A stretch of 20,630 nt of DNA from positions 1 through 20,630 of the forward strand of contig JBQPWD010000008.1 of the NCBI GenBank assembly GCA_052246995.1. The letters run 5' to 3'. Source of the stretch: Candidatus Bathyarchaeota archaeon (lineage in GTDB: Archaea > Thermoproteota > Bathyarchaeia > Hecatellales > Hecatellaceae). Below the pieces are notes generated by a model that saw nothing but the letters and a program-made list of their open reading frames with translations, had not been told where the DNA came from and did no database searches. Below are positions 1,187-20,098 of the stretch, in pieces. Each line of letters opens with the position of its first letter. The first letter of the stretch is position 1. Made by a program: the position numbers and the translations under genes.

Positions 1187-1534
1187 TTACTTTTTAACTT
1201 GTAATTTTTCTCTGTTCGCCAGAAGCTCTTCTCTACTACGTTGCACCACCTTATTTTTCTTTATCAACTTGTGCAAGTAAGATAATGGTGGAAAACTTAT
1301 TGCGTGTTGTGGGCATGTGTTTTGGCATGTGGTGCAGCCTACTAGGCAATTTAACGGTCTAGCTACAACCGCTACATTTCTTTCATAATCAAACTGGTAA
1401 ACGTTTCTTCCACAGTTTAAAACGCATATACCGCAGCCTATGCAAAGTTCAGAATCCACAGTGGGATACCAATTTATCTCCTCACGGGGTATACCACGCC
1501 ACGTTTGCTTAATGGCTCCTTCAACATTTACCAT
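1187..1534 (-). CDS. 4Fe-4S dicluster ferredoxin-family protein
   Basis: IPREEINWYPTVD, CIGCGICVLNC and CLVGCTTCQNTCP motifs. Confidence 0.9.
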   Translation of the reverse strand: MVNVEGAIKQTWRGIPREEINWYPTVDSELCIGCGICVLNCGRNVYQFDYERNVAVVARPLNCLVGCTTCQNTCPQHAISFPPLSYLHKLIKKNKVVQRSREELLANREKLQVKK

Positions 1535-1794
1535 TACTGGACACCTGCCTCTCTTAAGGCTTCCTTAAAGGTTTCTTCGCTCGGGCATACCCCTATTATG
1601 CGTATGTCCTTATCAATAACAACAGCGGGACTTGCAGTTATGCCATATTCGTTTAGCTTTGGGTTCATTCCGCGATAGATTTCAATTTCAATTTTGTCTT
1701 TATATTCCTCTCTGATTTTTTCTATCAGTTTGAGCAGCAGCCTTCCGCCTGAACATGGAGGCTCAGAGGTGAAAACTTCAACTTTAACTGGCAT
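1534..1794 (-). CDS. Thioredoxin-fold protein, PPCSGG variant
   Basis: VEVFT-EPPCSGG, YGITASPAVVID cis-Pro motif, C-terminal GVCPS; GGGGGT RBS. Confidence 0.85.
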   Translation of the reverse strand: MPVKVEVFTSEPPCSGGRLLLKLIEKIREEYKDKIEIEIYRGMNPKLNEYGITASPAVVIDKDIRIIGVCPSEETFKEALREAGVQ

Positions 1795-1796
1795 GT

Positions 1797-2057
1797 TTAC
1801 ACCCCCATTTCTTTAAGCGCCGCCTCAATTGTTTGCATGCTTGGACATACACCCATAATCTTTATTTTGCCTTCATTGAAGACTATGGCCGGCACTAATG
1901 TAAGACCGTATTTGCCGAACTCTTCACATGGCCCAACATGTTTTACCACCTCCACTTTATCACCGTATTTTGCCTTAATCAAATCCGCATACTCCAAGAG
2001 TTTTAGGCAGCCTGCACATGGCGGTTCAGCTGTAAAAGTTTCAACCTTTACAACCAT
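1797..2057 (-). CDS. Thioredoxin-fold protein, PPCAGC
   Basis: CxxC, YGLTLVPAIVFN, C-terminal GVCPS; AGGTGG RBS. Confidence 0.85.
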   Translation of the reverse strand: MVVKVETFTAEPPCAGCLKLLEYADLIKAKYGDKVEVVKHVGPCEEFGKYGLTLVPAIVFNEGKIKIMGVCPSMQTIEAALKEMGV

Positions 2058-2059
2058 GT

Positions 2060-2326
2060 TTACCCACCTTTTAATTCCTGTTTTACGGTGTTAAGTAGTT
2101 CCTCCCTACTGGGAACTTTTCCTGTAGTTAAAATTTTGCCATTAACGACAACGGTTGGAGTCATTAGTATATTGTACTTGTCAGCTTCCTCTGAGAAAGC
2201 TGTATACTTCTTTACCTCAATAGCTTCACCAAATTCTTTAACAATCTCCTCACACAGTTTAATTGTTGCTTTACATTTGGCGCAAGGCGGGTCAGATCCG
2301 AAAACCTCTATCTTAACTTTTTTCAT
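2060..2326 (-). CDS. Small redox-active thioredoxin-family protein (MTH895-like)
   Basis: PPCAKC, YNILMTPTVVVNGK...GKVPS; GGAGGTGG RBS. Confidence 0.88.
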   Translation of the reverse strand: MKKVKIEVFGSDPPCAKCKATIKLCEEIVKEFGEAIEVKKYTAFSEEADKYNILMTPTVVVNGKILTTGKVPSREELLNTVKQELKGG

Positions 2327-2382
2327 CCATTACCACCTCCCACAATTTTTTGTTATGTTAACTGAGCTAAACATAAAATCAA

Positions 2383-3459
2383 CTACCTCCAAAACGTGTT
2401 TCCTATGATGAAGGCGGTTATGGTAGCTAATACTACCGTGGTTAGTATGTAAACTAAAGCCTTCTTCACCGTAAACACCCTTGCAATTACAACCATGTTT
2501 GGAAGACTTAAACCAGGCCCAGCTAGTAGGAGGGCAAGGGCTGGACCTTTACCCATACCTAAACGCATAAGCATGTCAACAAACGGAGCTTCTGTAAGCG
2601 TGGCAAAGTAGCTTACAGCCCCTATCAACGTAGCAAGAAAGGTTGGTAAAATGGTGTTTCCGCCAAGCCATGTTTGAATCCATTCTGCAGGTAAAACTTT
2701 ACCTACAACTCCCACAACAAACACACCAACAAGTAGTAGTGGAAATATCATTCTAACAAACCATAGGGTTTCATAAAGCCAGTTTTTAACGGATGAGACT
2801 CCAAGTTTAAACCATGCATAGATAAATGTTAAAGTTACGGGTATAAGGAATAGGATAACCTTGTAAAGATAGGGTTTCCCTACACCAAGGTAGTTGGGTA
2901 GAAGAAGTGTAGCTATAAGCAGAATAAAAAGTATAAGATGTTTTAAACCTGTTACCTGAGTTGGTGTTATGGTTGAAGGGTTAGCAGCCTTCTTAGCCCT
3001 TTCCCTTTCATCCAACCTAAACATGTAAACCATAATTAAGCCAACAATAAAGGCTGTAGATAAGGCTGCAACAATCCTCATTAAAGCCATATCCAAACCA
3101 AGTATTGCTCCGGTATAAACTAAGGCTAGAAGGTTAGTTGCAGGTGCAGTCCAAAGTAGGATAAAGGCTGGCCCTATACTACTTCCCTTCCTATAAAGTC
3201 CAGCAGCTATTGGAATTACAGTACAAGAACAAACAGCCAAACATACACCAGAAGTAGCTGCAAGTGGAAATGAAACAATTTTCCTAGCTGTTGAACCCAT
3301 GTACCTAAGAATAGCTTCTCTTGAAAGAAAGGATGTTATAGCCCCCGCAAGCAGAAAAGCAGGAATTAAACATGTAAGAACATGAAAAGCTACATAGTCC
3401 CATAAAGCGTAAAACCCCGCAAAAATTAAATCTAACAGAAACACACCGTTTTCCTCCAC
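2383..3459 (-). CDS. ArsP/DUF318-family permease
   Basis: Multi-pass hydrophobic protein with HVLTCLIPAF, AVCSCTVIP, YFATLTE, GPALALLLAGPGLSLP motifs. Confidence 0.88.
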   Translation of the reverse strand: MEENGVFLLDLIFAGFYALWDYVAFHVLTCLIPAFLLAGAITSFLSREAILRYMGSTARKIVSFPLAATSGVCLAVCSCTVIPIAAGLYRKGSSIGPAFILLWTAPATNLLALVYTGAILGLDMALMRIVAALSTAFIVGLIMVYMFRLDERERAKKAANPSTITPTQVTGLKHLILFILLIATLLLPNYLGVGKPYLYKVILFLIPVTLTFIYAWFKLGVSSVKNWLYETLWFVRMIFPLLLVGVFVVGVVGKVLPAEWIQTWLGGNTILPTFLATLIGAVSYFATLTEAPFVDMLMRLGMGKGPALALLLAGPGLSLPNMVVIARVFTVKKALVYILTTVVLATITAFIIGNTFWR

Positions 3460-3475
3460 AATTTTAATATCATAT

Positions 3476-3512
3476 TATCGACATATCTAAATATCGCGAT
3501 ATATTTAAATAT
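3476..3512. promoter_or_regulatory. Divergent promoter with candidate ArsR operator
   Basis: 72-bp intergenic gap; perfect palindromes ATATCGCGATAT (3491-3502) and ATATTTAAATAT (3501-3512, TATA-like on both strands); ATATC-N10-GATAT at 3483-3502. Confidence 0.55.
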
Positions 3513-3531
3513 TTTCTAAGCATTATTTAAT

Positions 3532-3876
3532 GTGGTAACCTTGAATAAAGAAAAGGTTATTTCAGAATACAGGGTAAGACTTCTTAATGCGTTAGCAGAC
3601 CCACTTCGGTTGGAGATAGTGGAGTTTTTAAAGGATGGAGAACGTTGTGTATGTGAAATTATCCCGGTTTTTGGGAGAGCTCAATCCACAATTTCTAAAC
3701 ATCTTGACATTCTATACCAAGCAGGAATCTTAGATAGACGTGTTGAGGGAAAACGAACAATTTACAGCATAAAAAACAATCAAGTATTTAAAATTCTTAA
3801 GGAAGTTGACATCTTCATTCTAAATCAGCTTTCACCAGTAACTAAAGCCGTTAAGCTTCTGAAGACTTCTACATAG
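3532..3876 (+). CDS. arsR: ArsR/SmtB-family transcriptional repressor
   Basis: ALADPLRLEIV...GERCVCEI...QSTISKHLDIL; CVC alpha-3 metalloid-binding motif. Confidence 0.92.
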   Translation: MVTLNKEKVISEYRVRLLNALADPLRLEIVEFLKDGERCVCEIIPVFGRAQSTISKHLDILYQAGILDRRVEGKRTIYSIKNNQVFKILKEVDIFILNQLSPVTKAVKLLKTST

Positions 3877-3929
3877 TAGCAACTGTAAAAAAGAGAGTTA
3901 ATTAAGATGTTGTAAAGAATGTGTAAAAA

Positions 3930-4331
3930 GTGACCATTTTGGCTAAGACACTAACAATTGTGCTTTTAACAGGACCTTATACTTCACAGTATGCAGACAT
4001 AGCATGCCATATAGCTGAAAAGGCTTTAGAACAAGGTTGTAAAGTTAACCTCTTTCTTTACATGGATGGTGTTCATGTAGCTGTAAAAGGTCAAATAACA
4101 AACAATTTTCCCAATATTGAAGAAAACCTCAAAAAACTTATCAAAAAAGGGCTTAAAGTTAAAGCATGTGTAAGATGTGCGTCAGCTAGAGGATACGTTG
4201 AAGATGGGAAAACAGTTGAAACTGGCGTATTCTCTACTTCACGGTATGTTGAAGGGGTTACTATAACAGGAATTTATGAGCTTCCCAAATGGATAAGTGA
4301 AAGTGAAAAGGTTATAGTGTTTGGGGATTGA
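3930..4331 (+). CDS. DsrE/TusD-family sulfur relay protein
   Basis: LLTGPY, LFLYMDGVH, ACVRCASARG with conserved active Cys region. Start may be TTG 3939. Confidence 0.85.
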   Translation: MTILAKTLTIVLLTGPYTSQYADIACHIAEKALEQGCKVNLFLYMDGVHVAVKGQITNNFPNIEENLKKLIKKGLKVKACVRCASARGYVEDGKTVETGVFSTSRYVEGVTITGIYELPKWISESEKVIVFGD

Positions 4332-4695
4332 GATAACGGTTAACTCTGTTGTAATACTGGTAACTAAAGCACCTTATGGACATGAAAACGTCTATGGTGC
4401 ATTGTACACGGCTATAGCATGTCAAGAGATGGGGGTTCAGGTTACTGTGATTCTTCTCGGTGACGGAGTATACTCGGCTTTAAAAAAACAGAACCCTGAA
4501 AGAAGTATTGGCTACCCTTCAATTGAGAATCTTTTTTACACACTTTTACCAAACTGTGAAGTTCTTGTAGAGAAATCCTCGTTGGCGGAAAGGGGATTAT
4601 CAAAAGACAACCTTATTGAAGTTGTAAAGATAACAGATAGGGAAGGTGTATGTAAAGCTTTGAAAGAAAAAGGTAAAGCAATTTTAACATACTGA
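4321..4695 (+). CDS. DsrF/TusC-family protein
   Basis: VTKAPYG, LLGDGVY, SLAERGL. Start is TTG 4321 or possibly ACG 4336. Confidence 0.82.
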   Translation: MGIEITVNSVVILVTKAPYGHENVYGALYTAIACQEMGVQVTVILLGDGVYSALKKQNPERSIGYPSIENLFYTLLPNCEVLVEKSSLAERGLSKDNLIEVVKITDREGVCKALKEKGKAILTY

Positions 4696-4777
4696 ATGAA
4701 TGGTTTGAGGTTAAAAATGAGTAAAAATGTTGAAAACTTAACTAAACCTAGAAAATGTTACATTAGGGGAAAGCAGC

Positions 4778-5932
4778 ATGGATAATCCTACAGTTTGTGT
4801 AGTTGTCCCCAGCTTTGCACATGAGGGACAGACAAGGCTTAAAGAGGTGTTAAGCAGGTATTTAGGCAGTTTAATAGAGGTGTTAGAGGTTGCAAGTCTT
4901 TCTGAGGAGGATGTTATTAACACCATTGCAGAGTTTACATTAAAAGCAAAATTCTCCATTATCATTGTTTTAAGCTTTTTAGAACCGTTGACGGTTAAAA
5001 ACATAAAAAACATGTTTTCCATGCCCACCTACAGCTTAGATAACGCTATGATGGAAGTTGCAGGAGCCTACATCAATGAACGTATAGTAGTTTTACTATC
5101 GTCGGAGGAGGAGGAAAAGATATTCTCTTTACATAAACCACTATATGAGGTGACACCAAAACAGATTATGGATGTTAAGGTGGAAAGCTCACCTGAAAAG
5201 GTGGCGGATACAATCATCCAACTTTACAATCAAGGATACAACAAATTCTTTCTTGGCTCTGTAAGGCTTATTACAGATTTTGACCGTGTAAACGAGTTTC
5301 TTCTTGAGAAGATAGGTGTCAGAAAAGACTTAAACTTAATTAACCCATGCTTAACATTCGCCGAATTTTTGTCACAAACAGGGAGAGGTTTAAAAATTTC
5401 ATCTTACGAGATAAGCAAAATATTGCCATGTATTGCCGACCCAACCAAGATTAGGGTTGTAGCTAAGTTTAATACAAGCATTGACAAACTGTTACCCCTG
5501 TTGTACCTCAACATTAAAAATTCAAGGTATAACGACGCTTTAGAAACTTTAACATTTACAACAAAAGATGAAGAAATGATAACCATCTATGGGTCGGGAA
5601 AAGTTTGTATGGGGAAAGTAAGAGATGAGGAAAAAGCTAAAAAACTGTTAAAAATGTTGATGGAAACCTTAAACAAGGCTTACAACTACTATACCGTTCA
5701 CGGCGTCCCACCAGATGAGGCTTTTAACCTGAGAAGTAAGTTAAGCCCAATGCTGGTCTACAACCACCTACCTAAATTAGACTGTAAAGTGTGCGGTGAG
5801 GAAACATGCTACGTTTTCGCCTTCAAGCTTTTATCTGGTGAAAGAAAACTTGAGGAATGCAAGCCACTGTATGTTGAAGGTAGACGTCGTGATAGAGAGT
5901 TTTTAGAAAAAATAGTTAACCCAATATTTTAG
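4778..5932 (+). CDS. Fusion: Asp/Glu/hydantoin racemase-like N-domain + (Fe-S)-binding domain (COG4871/PF04060-like)
   Basis: C-half: LPCIADPTKIR, ITIYGSGKV, LPKLDCKVCGEETCYVFA...LEECKPL. N-half resemblance to racemase fold is weaker (IIVLSFLEP, FFLGSVRL, LINP). Confidence 0.72.
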   Translation: MDNPTVCVVVPSFAHEGQTRLKEVLSRYLGSLIEVLEVASLSEEDVINTIAEFTLKAKFSIIIVLSFLEPLTVKNIKNMFSMPTYSLDNAMMEVAGAYINERIVVLLSSEEEEKIFSLHKPLYEVTPKQIMDVKVESSPEKVADTIIQLYNQGYNKFFLGSVRLITDFDRVNEFLLEKIGVRKDLNLINPCLTFAEFLSQTGRGLKISSYEISKILPCIADPTKIRVVAKFNTSIDKLLPLLYLNIKNSRYNDALETLTFTTKDEEMITIYGSGKVCMGKVRDEEKAKKLLKMLMETLNKAYNYYTVHGVPPDEAFNLRSKLSPMLVYNHLPKLDCKVCGEETCYVFAFKLLSGERKLEECKPLYVEGRRRDREFLEKIVNPIF

Positions 5933-5943
5933 GGGTAAAAACA

Positions 5944-6264
5944 ACGACTCTAATTGTTATCTTAACCAAACCACCATCCCATCAAACAGTAGCAACATTA
6001 CTCAAGATTCTAAACAACGATGAAAAAATTTTGTTGTTTGCTTGTGGAGATGGTGTTTACTCGATAATAGAGGCAAACCCGCTTAGCAACATCATTCACA
6101 ACATTCTTAAGAAGGGTGGCATCATCTACGCTTCCCGTGAAGACATGGATGCACGAGGAGTCACATTCAACCTAGTCATTGAAGGAGTTAGAATTCCAAG
6201 AGACTTTTATGGTATGCTAATCCACACCATAATGAAGGAAGAAAACATTCTAGTAACCATTTAA
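5944..6264 (+). CDS. DsrH/TusB-family protein; extended upstream of the ORF-track start (6031)
   Basis: In-frame TLIVILTKPP...FACGDGVY...EDMDARGV; no ATG/GTG/TTG between the upstream TAA (5917) and 6031; ACG at 5944 lies 7 nt after AGGGGT. Confidence 0.75.
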   Translation, partial: TTLIVILTKPPSHQTVATLLKILNNDEKILLFACGDGVYSIIEANPLSNIIHNILKKGGIIYASREDMDARGVTFNLVIEGVRIPRDFYGMLIHTIMKEENILVTI

Positions 6265-6390
6265 AACAACAAAGGAATTTAAATAAAATTCTAGTAGAGT
6301 TGTAACATGTCTATTTCATACAGTATTGGTAGAGCTTGTATAGCAAAGCATCCTTTATCCATTTTTTTAAGCATAGTTGAAAGTTTACTT

Positions 6391-6594
6391 TTATGGTGGC
6401 TTAACATGTTTAAACTTTTCACTTGCCTGTTCTCCACCTACACCCCAGCTTTCCTTTGGAACCTCGTGAATTATAACCTCAACAGCCTCTTTAGGTACAC
6501 CCATATCGGTAAAAACCTTAGTTACTCCTGATATTACCTTTTTCTTAGCCTCATTTGAAAAACCAGTCCAAACATAAACATGAACAACAGGCAT
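6391..6594 (-). CDS. 4-oxalocrotonate tautomerase family protein
   Basis: 67 aa, N-terminal Pro after Met, VEVIIHEVPKESWGVGG. Confidence 0.9.
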   Translation of the reverse strand: MPVVHVYVWTGFSNEAKKKVISGVTKVFTDMGVPKEAVEVIIHEVPKESWGVGGEQASEKFKHVKPP

Positions 6595-6809
6595 ACAATA
6601 AGTTTCACCAGCCTACTTTAAAAATTTTACGTTTAAAAACTACAACCACAAGGTCACAACAGAGGCAATGTTAACCTCCACAAGAGATTTTTAAGTTTAC
6701 GGTGGACAAACGTGGTTATGCGGCTTTTCTTCATCAACCCTATGACTATTATATACTCTCAGTAACCTCTGGATTGATACAACTTCTACTGTCTAGATAG
6801 ATCAAGTGA

Positions 6810-18019: not shown

Positions 18020-18478
18020 CGTTGTCGGATAGTTAACATTTTATAACTATCCGTTCCACCTCAGCCTTAGAGGTTTCACAGATGGCTTTCAGGGGTAACG
18101 GGGCTCCCCTCATCCTGAGCATGTTTAAACATGCGGTTACATCTCTGTCGTTTTCAACCCTCAGAATATGCGGGTTAGAGCTTACTACCATGACGTTTGA
18201 CTCGTTGACATCTATCGCTATCCAGTCATCGGGATTCGATAAATCTACATCCTTTTTGAACGACACTATTATTTTACTTTCATTCATTGTTATCTCACCA
18301 GTCTTCAGCTTTCCTTCTTTCCAAGCATCTATGAACTTCTTCTGATACTCACCATACCTCTAAAGTCCTCTAATAGCTTCCTTACATTATCGTTTATCTC
18401 ATATCCGAAGGGGACACCGGTTATTACTTCCACGATTAGAGTATACTCAGAAATGTTATGTAAAGTTAACTATTCAGG
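18020..18478 (-). mobile_element. TnpB element C: internally deleted non-autonomous derivative retaining both ends
   Basis: GTG 18433 MEVITGVPFGY...LLEDFRGMV / GEYQKKF...WIAIDVNE (RuvC-I)...HILRV joined directly to ENDRDVTACLNML (RuvC-III); right end shared with element A; imperfect left-end palindrome at about 18450-18476. Confidence 0.85.
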
Positions 18479-18858: not shown

Positions 18859-19738
18859 GTTACAAAACAAAAATCCCATAAGAGGGAATTGAAAGCTTTG
18901 TGAATAGGTAGTCTAATGTTTTGAATGTTCCAGATGTGTTACAAAACAAAAATCCCATAAGAGGGAATTGAAAGATACAGTTTCACAAACCTCTCTAAGA
19001 CTTGTTCTAATCTGTTACAAAACAAAAATCCCATAAGAGGGAATTGAAAGGCCGTTTTTATTACCACTTTCTCACCCCCTTATCTTTAGTTACAAAACAA
19101 AAATCCCATAAGAGGGAATTGAAAGGCCGTTTTTATTACCACTTTCTCACCCCCTTATCTTTAGTTACAAAACAAAAATCCCATAAGAGGGAATTGAAAG
19201 TTAACTACTATGTGGAACTTATGGATAGGTGAAACATAGTTACAAAACAAAAATCCCATAAGAGGGAATTGAAAGTTGATTAAACCTCTTTTAATCGCCA
19301 ACACTGTGAAAAACTGTGTTACAAAACAAAAATCCCATAAGAGGGAATTGAAAGTACATGTACATTTTTTAAGCCTTTAAAGTGTAAACTTCGTTACAAA
19401 ACAAAAATCCCATAAGAGGGAATTGAAAGCCAATGTTTTGTCTTCTTGCATTATCCTTAAAAAGATTCCGTTACAAAACAAAAATCCCATAAGAGGGAAT
19501 TGAAAGAAAACAGGACAGACAACAGCGTCGTAGGCGTAACTTGTATATGTTACAAAACAAAAATCCCATAAGAGGGAATTGAAAGTAATAGACGCTAAAA
19601 GTCAAGCAGAGTTTACGGATAAGCTGTTACAAAACAAAAATCCCATAAGAGGGAATTGAAAGAACTCCATCGCTATTTCTGGTGGGAGAGCTTGCAGTAG
19701 TGTTACAAAACAAAAATCCCATAAGAGGGAATTGAAAG
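18859..19738 (+). CRISPR. CRISPR array: 12 identical 37-bp repeats, 11 spacers of 38-42 bp
   Basis: Repeat GTTACAAAACAAAAATCCCATAAGAGGGAATTGAAAG starting at 18859, 18938, 19014, 19089, 19164, 19239, 19318, 19393, 19470, 19549, 19626, 19702; the ATTGAAAG 3' end is the class 1 (Cas6) handle. Confidence 0.98.
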
Positions 19739-19811
19739 TGAATAACGTAGTCGAGGAAAGAGGATAGCAAAACGGGGTTTTGAGGTTGTTTGTAAAATGC
19801 TGGTGAGAGTG

Positions 19812-19861
19812 TTTAAATATAACATTACAAATATTACGTTTAGATGCATGTTTAAACGTAA
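19812..19861 (+). promoter_or_regulatory. vapBC promoter and candidate operator
   Basis: TTTAAATA at 19812-19819; inverted repeat TTACGTTTA (19834-19842)/TAAACGTAA (19853-19861). Confidence 0.5.
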
Positions 19862-19870
19862 ACATAAACG

Positions 19871-20098
19871 GTGTTAAAGTTGCCAAAAACAATTACAATC
19901 AGAGATGATGTTTATAAAAGGTTGTTGGAGGTTAAACGTGAGGGGGAAAGTTTTAGTGAGTTGTTTGAGAGGCTTATTGGAGGTGTAGGTTTAAACTCTC
20001 TTGAGGTTTTAAGGATGCTTAGGGGTTGTGTTGAGTTTAAGGATAAGGAGAGGTTGATTAGGGAGATTTATGCTGTAAGGTCTGAGTGTAGACTATGA
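19871..20098 (+). CDS. vapB: VapB-family antitoxin (DUF217/UPF0330-like)
   Basis: KTITIRDDVYKRL...KREGESFSELFERL; ATGA overlap with PIN gene. Start may be TTG 19880. Confidence 0.88.
   Translation: MLKLPKTITIRDDVYKRLLEVKREGESFSELFERLIGGVGLNSLEVLRMLRGCVEFKDKERLIREIYAVRSECRL

Follow-up and report, generated by a model that had tools for sequence, protein, structure and literature searches.

A conserved DsrEFH-like module with an iron-sulfur partner in archaeal arsenic islands

The locus described here lies at positions 1187-6264 of a 20,630-nucleotide stretch of Candidatus Bathyarchaeota archaeon DNA (contig JBQPWD010000008.1, positions 1 to 20,630; this whole stretch is called the window). 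Two divergent gene arms meet at a short control region. One encodes an ArsP-family permease, three thioredoxin-fold proteins and a ferredoxin, the other an ArsR repressor, DsrE-, DsrF- and DsrH-like subunits and an iron-sulfur (Fe-S) fusion protein (Table 1). What are DsrEFH-like proteins doing in such a locus? An earlier examination of the letters only, referred to here as the sequence-only reading, had proposed an arsenic-type regulon wired to a complete DsrEFH-like sulfur relay. The arsenic-type regulon is supported, and its link to dsrEFH recurs in Methanosarcinia, in Methanobacteria and in a second family of the window's class; a complete relay is not supported. The Fe-S protein and the DsrEFH-like trio constitute a real, conserved accessory module of archaeal arsenic islands, which probably belongs to the arsenic/metalloid response. 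It is apparently undescribed: no description was found in the open-access literature, and one in subscription journals or supplements is possible. Yet arsenic operons are well studied, and this four-gene core lies in or beside them in two major methanogen classes.

Conservation and arsenic linkage of the module

Relatives of the locus were collected with a DsrE alignment as query, which returned at least 69 genome loci and at least 80 metagenome loci; a single DsrE sequence as query returned none. The core was defined as the Fe-S protein with dsrE, dsrF and dsrH, and acr3, arsM, arsC and arsP served as arsenic markers. In the genome set, 68 loci passed the DsrE threshold, four genomes giving two loci each, and cluster labels were checked on representatives. 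The profiles were built from the loci of this same scan and the sampled genomes are kin, not independent. Among the matches listed, the full core was present in 52 of the 53 genome loci with 2.2 kb on both sides and in 26/29 metagenome loci. Arsenic markers accompanied it in 35 of the 44 genome loci of at least 12 kb (acr3, arsM or arsC in 33 of them) and in 19/23 metagenome loci of at least this length, again among the matches listed. For comparison, 36 of these genomes, 2-5 Mb in size, mostly have one copy of acr3 each.

The module's DsrE occurs in 106 of 201 Methanosarcinia genomes and in 43 of 121 Methanobacteria genomes, and Methanosarcina and Methanobacterium are among the named carriers (L142, L156, L117). 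Twenty Methanosarcinia loci were picked for long contigs from the 106 positive genomes and compared with 19 control windows 500 kb away: the full core was found in 19/20 loci and an arsenic marker in 18/20, against 0/19 controls. The 20 Methanobacteria loci drawn from the 43 positive genomes, a sample without control windows, all contain the core, with a marker in 17 and arsC in 16. In G039, a genome from another family of the window's class, the order is acr3...dsrH-dsrE-dsrF-FeS...arsR-arsC-trx-arsP. Four core gene orders were observed (EF-FeS-H, FeS-EFH, HEF-FeS and FeS-HEF) and the arsenic link is kept across them. The co-oriented gene run leading into dsrE begins with arsR in 23/63 loci (9/72 were left out for lack of a dsrE match or of upstream DNA). 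The sequence-only reading had itself suggested neighbourhood conservation across archaea as a check, with dsrEFH unlinked in relatives counting against it; when this was run, the link held overall. The backbone of the DsrE tree is unresolved, and no donor or direction of transfer is claimed.

Two further genes recur near the core. In 13/20 Methanosarcinia loci (e.g. L128:9150-9545) dsrH is followed by a gene for a ~95-residue protein that is rich in Cys and His and has no Pfam match, a candidate fifth component. In 19/20 Methanobacteria loci (L333-L352) the core has a DUF166 gene close by, mostly between arsC and dsrE.

Proteins, genome inventory and control region

The DsrE/F/H paralogues are encoded together, with PF02635 found twice and PF04077 once, all above the Pfam cut-off. 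Both cysteines of the DsrE CxxC are invariant (108/108 and 107/107 homologues). The first aligns with the active-site Cys78 of Allochromatium vinosum DsrE (PDB 2hy5, chain A), and the column of the second holds Ala in DsrE and TusD and Cys in YchN. No cysteine is conserved among DsrF homologues. The window DsrH has Leu/Ser at two columns where 78/110 and 80/109 homologues have Cys, and these cysteines are absent from several other clades too. The first column presumably corresponds to A. vinosum Cys20, a conserved cysteine that the window DsrH would then lack. The cysteine seen in Methanosarcinales DsrH is missing as well. A. vinosum DsrEFH (PDB 2hy5) and Escherichia coli TusBCD (PDB 2d1p) share with the window the three paralogues and the position of the DsrE active-site cysteine. 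The window proteins differ from them by a CxxC in place of a single cysteine, by scores below the NCBIfam Tus/Dsr equivalog cut-offs (53.8/89.25, 48.6/94.15 and 39.2/49.2 for the three subunits), by the lack of TusA and DsrC/TusE, by a near-constant Fe-S partner and by their arsenic-gene context. The module is DsrEFH-like but probably not a member of the Dsr/Tus relay.

The host genome (1.53 Mb, 100% complete by markers) provides the basis for genome-wide absences. Its sole two PF02635 genes are dsrE and dsrF. Genome-wide family searches gave no match for TusA (PF01206), DsrC (PF04358), rhodanese or Acr3/SBF, and nothing above cut-off for ArsA. ArsM-type, ArsC-type and DGC genes were not found genome-wide with the profiles built in this analysis, one LMWPc protein elsewhere reaching just 37 bits on the ArsC profile. 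Two weak PF02040 (ArsB) matches (28-30 bits) were taken as other transporters. The genome does encode a SufS-like desulfurase (470 bits against a cut-off of 475). The lack of arsC, acr3, arsM, tusA and dsrC seen in the window extends to the whole genome. A persulfide relay requires a donor and an acceptor (PMC3397948). Neither a TusA donor nor a DsrC/TusE acceptor was found in the genome, DsrE has its invariant second cysteine and the near-constant partner is an Fe-S protein; a complete sulfur relay is not supported. A different dsrE trio in genome G004 (L052:3758-6525), accompanied by SAMP/MoaD, TusA-like and UbaA genes, resembles a conventional sulfur relay and contrasts with the window module.

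The sequence-only reading had taken the Fe-S fusion as an insert, but the Fe-S protein turns out to be a near-constant partner of dsrEFH. Its C-terminal part was modelled with a pLDDT of 94 and has a half-TBP fold (Z 13.0 to TBP, rmsd 2.0 over 92 residues), followed by a cluster domain with an hmm match to the CFeSP large subunit (E 1.5e-12). The four cluster cysteines and a fifth cysteine are invariant in 110/110 homologues. The half-TBP fold, the PF04060 cluster domain and the Pro-Cys are those of archaeal proteins named '(Fe-S)-binding protein' or 'ArsR family metal-binding transcriptional regulator', a family that we take to be COG4871 and for which no characterised member was found. The Methanosarcinales version is fused to a winged HTH and bears the second of these names at JGI; the window copy has a racemase-fold N-domain in its place. 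The window and Methanobacteria proteins have no HTH and keep the cluster ligands and the fifth cysteine. The N-domain (model pLDDT 91) matches allantoin racemase 5lfd with Z 15.3 and rmsd 3.0 over 181 residues. It was placed by fold search alone, no Pfam or PDB sequence match being found and a protein search giving one homologue besides itself. Asp/Glu/hydantoin racemases use a catalytic cysteine pair. The N-domain has the fold but not the pair: no cysteine is invariant among 8 homologues, and the window has Ser beside the column where the 7 others have Cys. The same racemase-TBP-FeS fusion occurs in L132, L145 and L313. A plasmid search gave a single, unannotated match to the Fe-S domain. Complex prediction between the Fe-S domain and DsrE+F+H scored 0.01 against a mark of 0.32, which is no evidence either way.

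On the left arm, the permease has the PF03773 domain and the CSC motif expected of ArsP, organoarsenical export itself being predicted only. It scores below the equivalog cut-offs of the Cu/Zn type SO_0444 (99.8/300) and of SaoE (100.8/325), and is 39% identical to the ArsP of the G004 operon arsR-arsP-arsM-trx-arsF-arsG-acr3-arsC. The thioredoxin gene adjoining the ferredoxin gene has CSGG in place of CxxC. The ferredoxin subfamily recurs in other arsenic islands (L322, L132, L137, L139, L217, L061, L117, L174, L062, L108 and L042). In a same-family ArsP island an MtrA-like protein is encoded between DGC and arsR (L054:9680-10375).

Several known systems combine some of these parts. Operon C of Pseudodesulfovibrio mercurii ND132 (arsR5-arsP-arsE-DGC) shares ArsR, ArsP and a PF13192 thioredoxin with the window and is upregulated in arsenic-amended cells, as reported in the main text of 10.1101/2022.10.17.512643. 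That text contains no occurrence of 'dsrE', and the window's genome has no DGC match; a DGC gene is present in many homologous islands. The locus would work like an ars operon with such an ArsR-ArsP-ArsE arm. The SAO system of Clostridioides difficile and other anaerobes (10.1101/2022.07.06.499078) likewise brings together at one locus SaoE, an ArsP-family exporter that has the CSC motif, the thioredoxin-like SaoT and SaoD, which is DsrE-like and has an invariant CxxC. It differs in being a selenoprotein/ABC-import system of nine genes, only one of them DsrE-like. The window proteins lie far below the SAO cut-offs (SaoE 100.8/325, SaoT 24.3/65, SaoD 16/152) and do not belong to it; no ABC importer or MerB-like gene was seen in the window locus. 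To our knowledge, the function of E. coli YchN is unknown. This protein has the DsrE fold with a CxxC at the same place as the window DsrE (PDB 1jx7), its entry containing one sequence type.

The control of the locus was addressed with a palindromic operator matrix (consensus TCGAAATATTTAAATATTTCGA), which was derived from 21 other loci with 23 arsR-upstream regions as training set and was scanned across the whole genome. The top two sites of the 1.53-Mb genome, at 3478-3499 (20.7) and 3496-3517 (17.0), both lie in the 72-bp gap, the third site scoring 15.5. The palindromes noticed earlier in the divergent gap thus exceed chance, ranking first and second with a matrix from other loci, and a similar motif sits upstream of orthologous arsR genes. 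The palindrome core resembles the archaeal TATA box; this would suit a repressor, yet inflates matrix scores at promoters. The repressor itself has the ArsR HTH, the CVC and palindromic operator-like sites at its own promoter, as CxC-type ArsR proteins do, and among the island ArsRs C39 is kept in 96/96 and C41 in 85/96. We assign the CVC of the window ArsR to the alpha-3 sensing site. In Methanosarcinales the matrix from the window's class fails. With a separate matrix trained on arsR there, 6/14 core operons that lack arsR have an upstream palindrome scoring higher than the 95th percentile of 212 controls (5% by construction).

Inside the right arm, the arsR-dsrE and dsrF-fusion gaps score only -1.3 and 0.0 on the operator matrix, and control of this arm by ArsR would therefore need read-through. 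Inspection of the sequence gave no T-run in the plus-strand gaps. A home-made archaeal promoter matrix gave -2.6 upstream of dsrE and 6.9 for a site before the fusion gene, but the arsR promoter itself reached just 2.0, so that a separate dsrE promoter still has to be reckoned with. A sigma-70 scan (16 sites against 15.0 expected) is uninformative for an archaeon. Contigs of RNA run X5 cover arsR together with portions of the left arm and of dsrF, although contigs cannot show transcription or rank genes. In same-family genomes (L008, L035, L036, L037 and L051) the gene for the racemase-TBP-FeS fusion points away from an orthologous arsR, which is followed by a TauE-family exporter; the same operator-like motif is found and dsrE is absent from those loci.

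Possible functions of the module

The vicinal dithiol, the Fe-S partner with a spare cysteine, the ferredoxin, the thioredoxin folds and the changing clients (ArsC, ArsM, ArsP/Acr3) fit a dithiol redox relay, and such a role suits the parts better than the making or dethiolating of thioarsenicals. The variation of the neighbours between arsC, arsM, acr3 and arsP likewise fits a shared service, and ArsC and ArsM need a dithiol reductant. The module may thus act as an ArsR-controlled, ferredoxin- and Fe-S-driven dithiol relay that gives thiol reducing power to arsenical detoxification. Binding of As(III)/MAs(III) to the CVC of ArsR would release both divergent promoters, and arsR-dsrE-dsrF-FeS-dsrH would be produced as a single transcript. 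DsrE, DsrF and DsrH would assemble like DsrEFH, with the DsrE CxxC exposed. This CxxC would cycle between dithiol and disulfide. Its substrates would be pentavalent arsenicals or else oxidised cysteines in ArsC, ArsM or ArsE-like thioredoxins, and it would be re-reduced by the cluster and fifth cysteine of the Fe-S protein, itself fed by ferredoxin. The trivalent products would leave through ArsP here and through Acr3 in other genomes. As a whole this mechanism is tentative, its chance being put somewhat below even. If true, reductant supply for ArsC/ArsM in ferredoxin-based anaerobes would add a component to the known means of arsenic resistance and put the DsrEFH fold to a use other than sulfur transfer.

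Several observations weigh against the dithiol relay and its tie to arsenic. The CxxC is not specific to the module: all 20 DsrE proteins from weaker-match regions have it, mostly without arsenic linkage, one of these regions being an arsenic island (L322), one a core without markers (L313) and 18 neither. The nearest DsrE relatives (L171-L173, 63-65% identity) lie in dsrH-E-F clusters with neither Fe-S gene nor arsenic markers, L172 alone being long (16 kb), and the same holds for L314-L317. The module is rare in the window's class, where among 400 other genomes only G039 has a close DsrF and a genome of the same genus gave no PF02635 match. The window's genome contains no ArsC or ArsM for the module to serve. 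The Fe-S protein is frequently found without dsrEFH, which together with the winged-HTH fusion in Methanosarcinales suggests regulation rather than catalysis. Several Methanobacteriaceae loci are also flanked by flavoprotein A, rubrerythrin and pyridine-nucleotide oxidoreductase genes. The kinship of the genomes and the origin of the profiles in the same loci have the same bearing, as does a mechanism built from sequence, models and context.

A sulfur-based alternative would make the module a thioarsenical desulfurase. The DsrE cysteine would take the terminal sulfur of a thioarsenate or methylthioarsenate and become a persulfide, leaving a trivalent arsenical that can be exported. Sulfide would then be freed by the second cysteine, and the resulting disulfide would be reduced again by the Fe-S protein; in a variant the reaction would run the other way, as a thiolation. 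The first DsrE cysteine does align with DsrE-Cys78, the sulfur-binding residue (PMC3397948). Thiosulfonate transferase activity belongs to an archaeal DsrE3A, and a role in reactive-sulfur detoxification was proposed for DsrE4 proteins (10.1101/2023.12.18.572138). The sequencing runs with window DNA come from hot springs and sediment, the genome encodes the SufS-like desulfurase and in same-family genomes the gene after the orthologous arsR encodes a TauE-family exporter. On the other hand, the TusA, DsrC and rhodanese searches gave no sulfur donor or acceptor partner in the genome, the TauE loci are without dsrE and the chemistry is itself conjectural. Rhodanese-fold neighbours (16/68 loci) were considered as support for sulfur transfer and dismissed, as their domains have no conserved cysteine; this applies to those in Methanothrix, which tell against a desulfurase. 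Such an activity is unlikely. Equally unlikely is its sharper form, in which Fe-S + DsrEFH would be a thioarsenate-resistance enzyme, a ferredoxin-driven desulfurase/reductase stripping sulfur from thioarsenates and methylthioarsenates for Acr3/ArsP export of the product. If true, some half of Methanosarcinia and a third of Methanobacteria would carry this enzyme, and methanogens would have a direct part in the arsenic-sulfur speciation of sediments, paddies and hot springs. Thioarsenate handling would also fill a gap named in a review, which holds that resistance mechanisms for thioarsenates ought to exist (PMC6205960).

The cysteines may otherwise bind rather than reduce. As an arsenical-binding chaperone or sensing module, the CxxC and the partner cysteines would hold As(III)/MAs(III) and pass it to an exporter or signal through the Fe-S protein as a regulator. 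The winged-HTH fusion with its JGI name, the TBP-like fold, a racemase-fold extra domain that could bind a ligand and the Fe-S gene lying beside arsR without dsrEFH in many class relatives all point this way. However, the HTH-less versions of the window and Methanobacteria still keep the cluster ligands and the fifth cysteine, and a separate CVC ArsR is already present in the locus; we give the proposal a low probability. The arsenic-free copies among the nearest relatives and the redox-stress genes flanking Methanobacteriaceae loci could finally mean a general thiol, Fe-S or oxidative-stress module captured in stress islands, devoid of arsenic-specific chemistry. In Thioalkalivibrio, arsenite raises the expression of some DsrE/F-like genes and lowers that of others, with an unclear role (PMC6620896). 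Against such a capture, which is improbable, stand the lack of arsenic markers in all 19 control windows and the place of the module directly behind arsC, acr3 or arsR in operons of several lineages, with differing gene orders.

Gene models and minor features of the window

The nine-gene content and the 72-bp divergent gap (3460-3531) given by the sequence-only reading hold, all genes being recovered by Pfam/NCBIfam searches. Its description of short gaps throughout is right for most of them, but trxA-arsP (56 bp), arsR-dsrE (53 bp) and dsrF-fusion (82 bp) are longer. A 7.6-kb contig of sequencing run X1 spans 1920-6700 with 37 differences and has both arms joined there too; because it crosses this interval, the two-arm junction is no assembly artefact. 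No ATG, GTG or TTG precedes 6031 in the dsrH frame. An ACG at 5944 behind AGGGG (region 5931-5946) aligns with the Met of the G039 homologue, and the start region is letter-identical in runs X1, X2 and X4; the ACG is probably the start, be it a weak non-canonical one or the result of an ATG lost recently.

Table 1. Features of the divergent locus, with window positions, strand and the basis of each assignment.
Feature	Positions	Strand	Basis
Ferredoxin, 2x[4Fe-4S]	1187..1534	-	Pfam Fer4/Fer4_7
trxC, thioredoxin-fold (EPPCSGG, no CxxC; second Cys in GVCP)	1534..1794	-	PF13192, Cys positions
trxB, thioredoxin-fold (EPPCAGC, GVCP)	1797..2057	-	PF13192, Cys positions
trxA, MTH895/ArsE-like thioredoxin (DPPCAKC)	2060..2326	-	TIGR00412 55 bits, below cut-off 62
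ArsP_1-family permease, CSC motif at 77-79	2383..3459	-	PF03773 253.9 bits
Divergent control region, 72 bp, two overlapping 22-bp palindromic ArsR-type operator-like sites	3460..3531	.	Matrix scan
ArsR/SmtB repressor, CVC its sole two Cys	3532..3876	+	NF033788 84 bits, cut-off 55
DsrE/TusD-like subunit, CxxC (longest ORF from 3930)	3939..4331	+	PF02635
DsrF/TusC-like subunit, without conserved Cys	4321..4695	+	PF02635
Three-domain Fe-S fusion, 384 aa: racemase-fold N-domain (~residues 1-200), half-TBP with invariant Pro-Cys, CFeSP/RnfB-type four-Cys cluster domain	4778..5932	+	Models, hmm match, Cys conservation
DsrH/TusB-like subunit, inferred ACG start	5944..6264	+	PF04077 35 bits, cut-off 24.4

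Some minor features were noted around the locus. A contig of run X6 runs from the arsR end straight to that of dsrH (3878-6277) with 2398 bases skipped, as if from a relative without the whole module; its short side of 29 letters makes this weak. A gene of the 4-oxalocrotonate tautomerase family (6391-6594, minus strand) is convergent with the end of the core and has a homologue (E 1.9e-33) at L313:10558-10836 in G787, whose class is a different one; this hints at a common cassette. Two short open reading frames (44-358 and 18033-18287) end alike at the C-terminus (AKVERIVIKC) and resemble transposase remnants, and those near 19044-19892 (region 18900-19900) carry a repeated peptide, suggesting a DNA repeat array.

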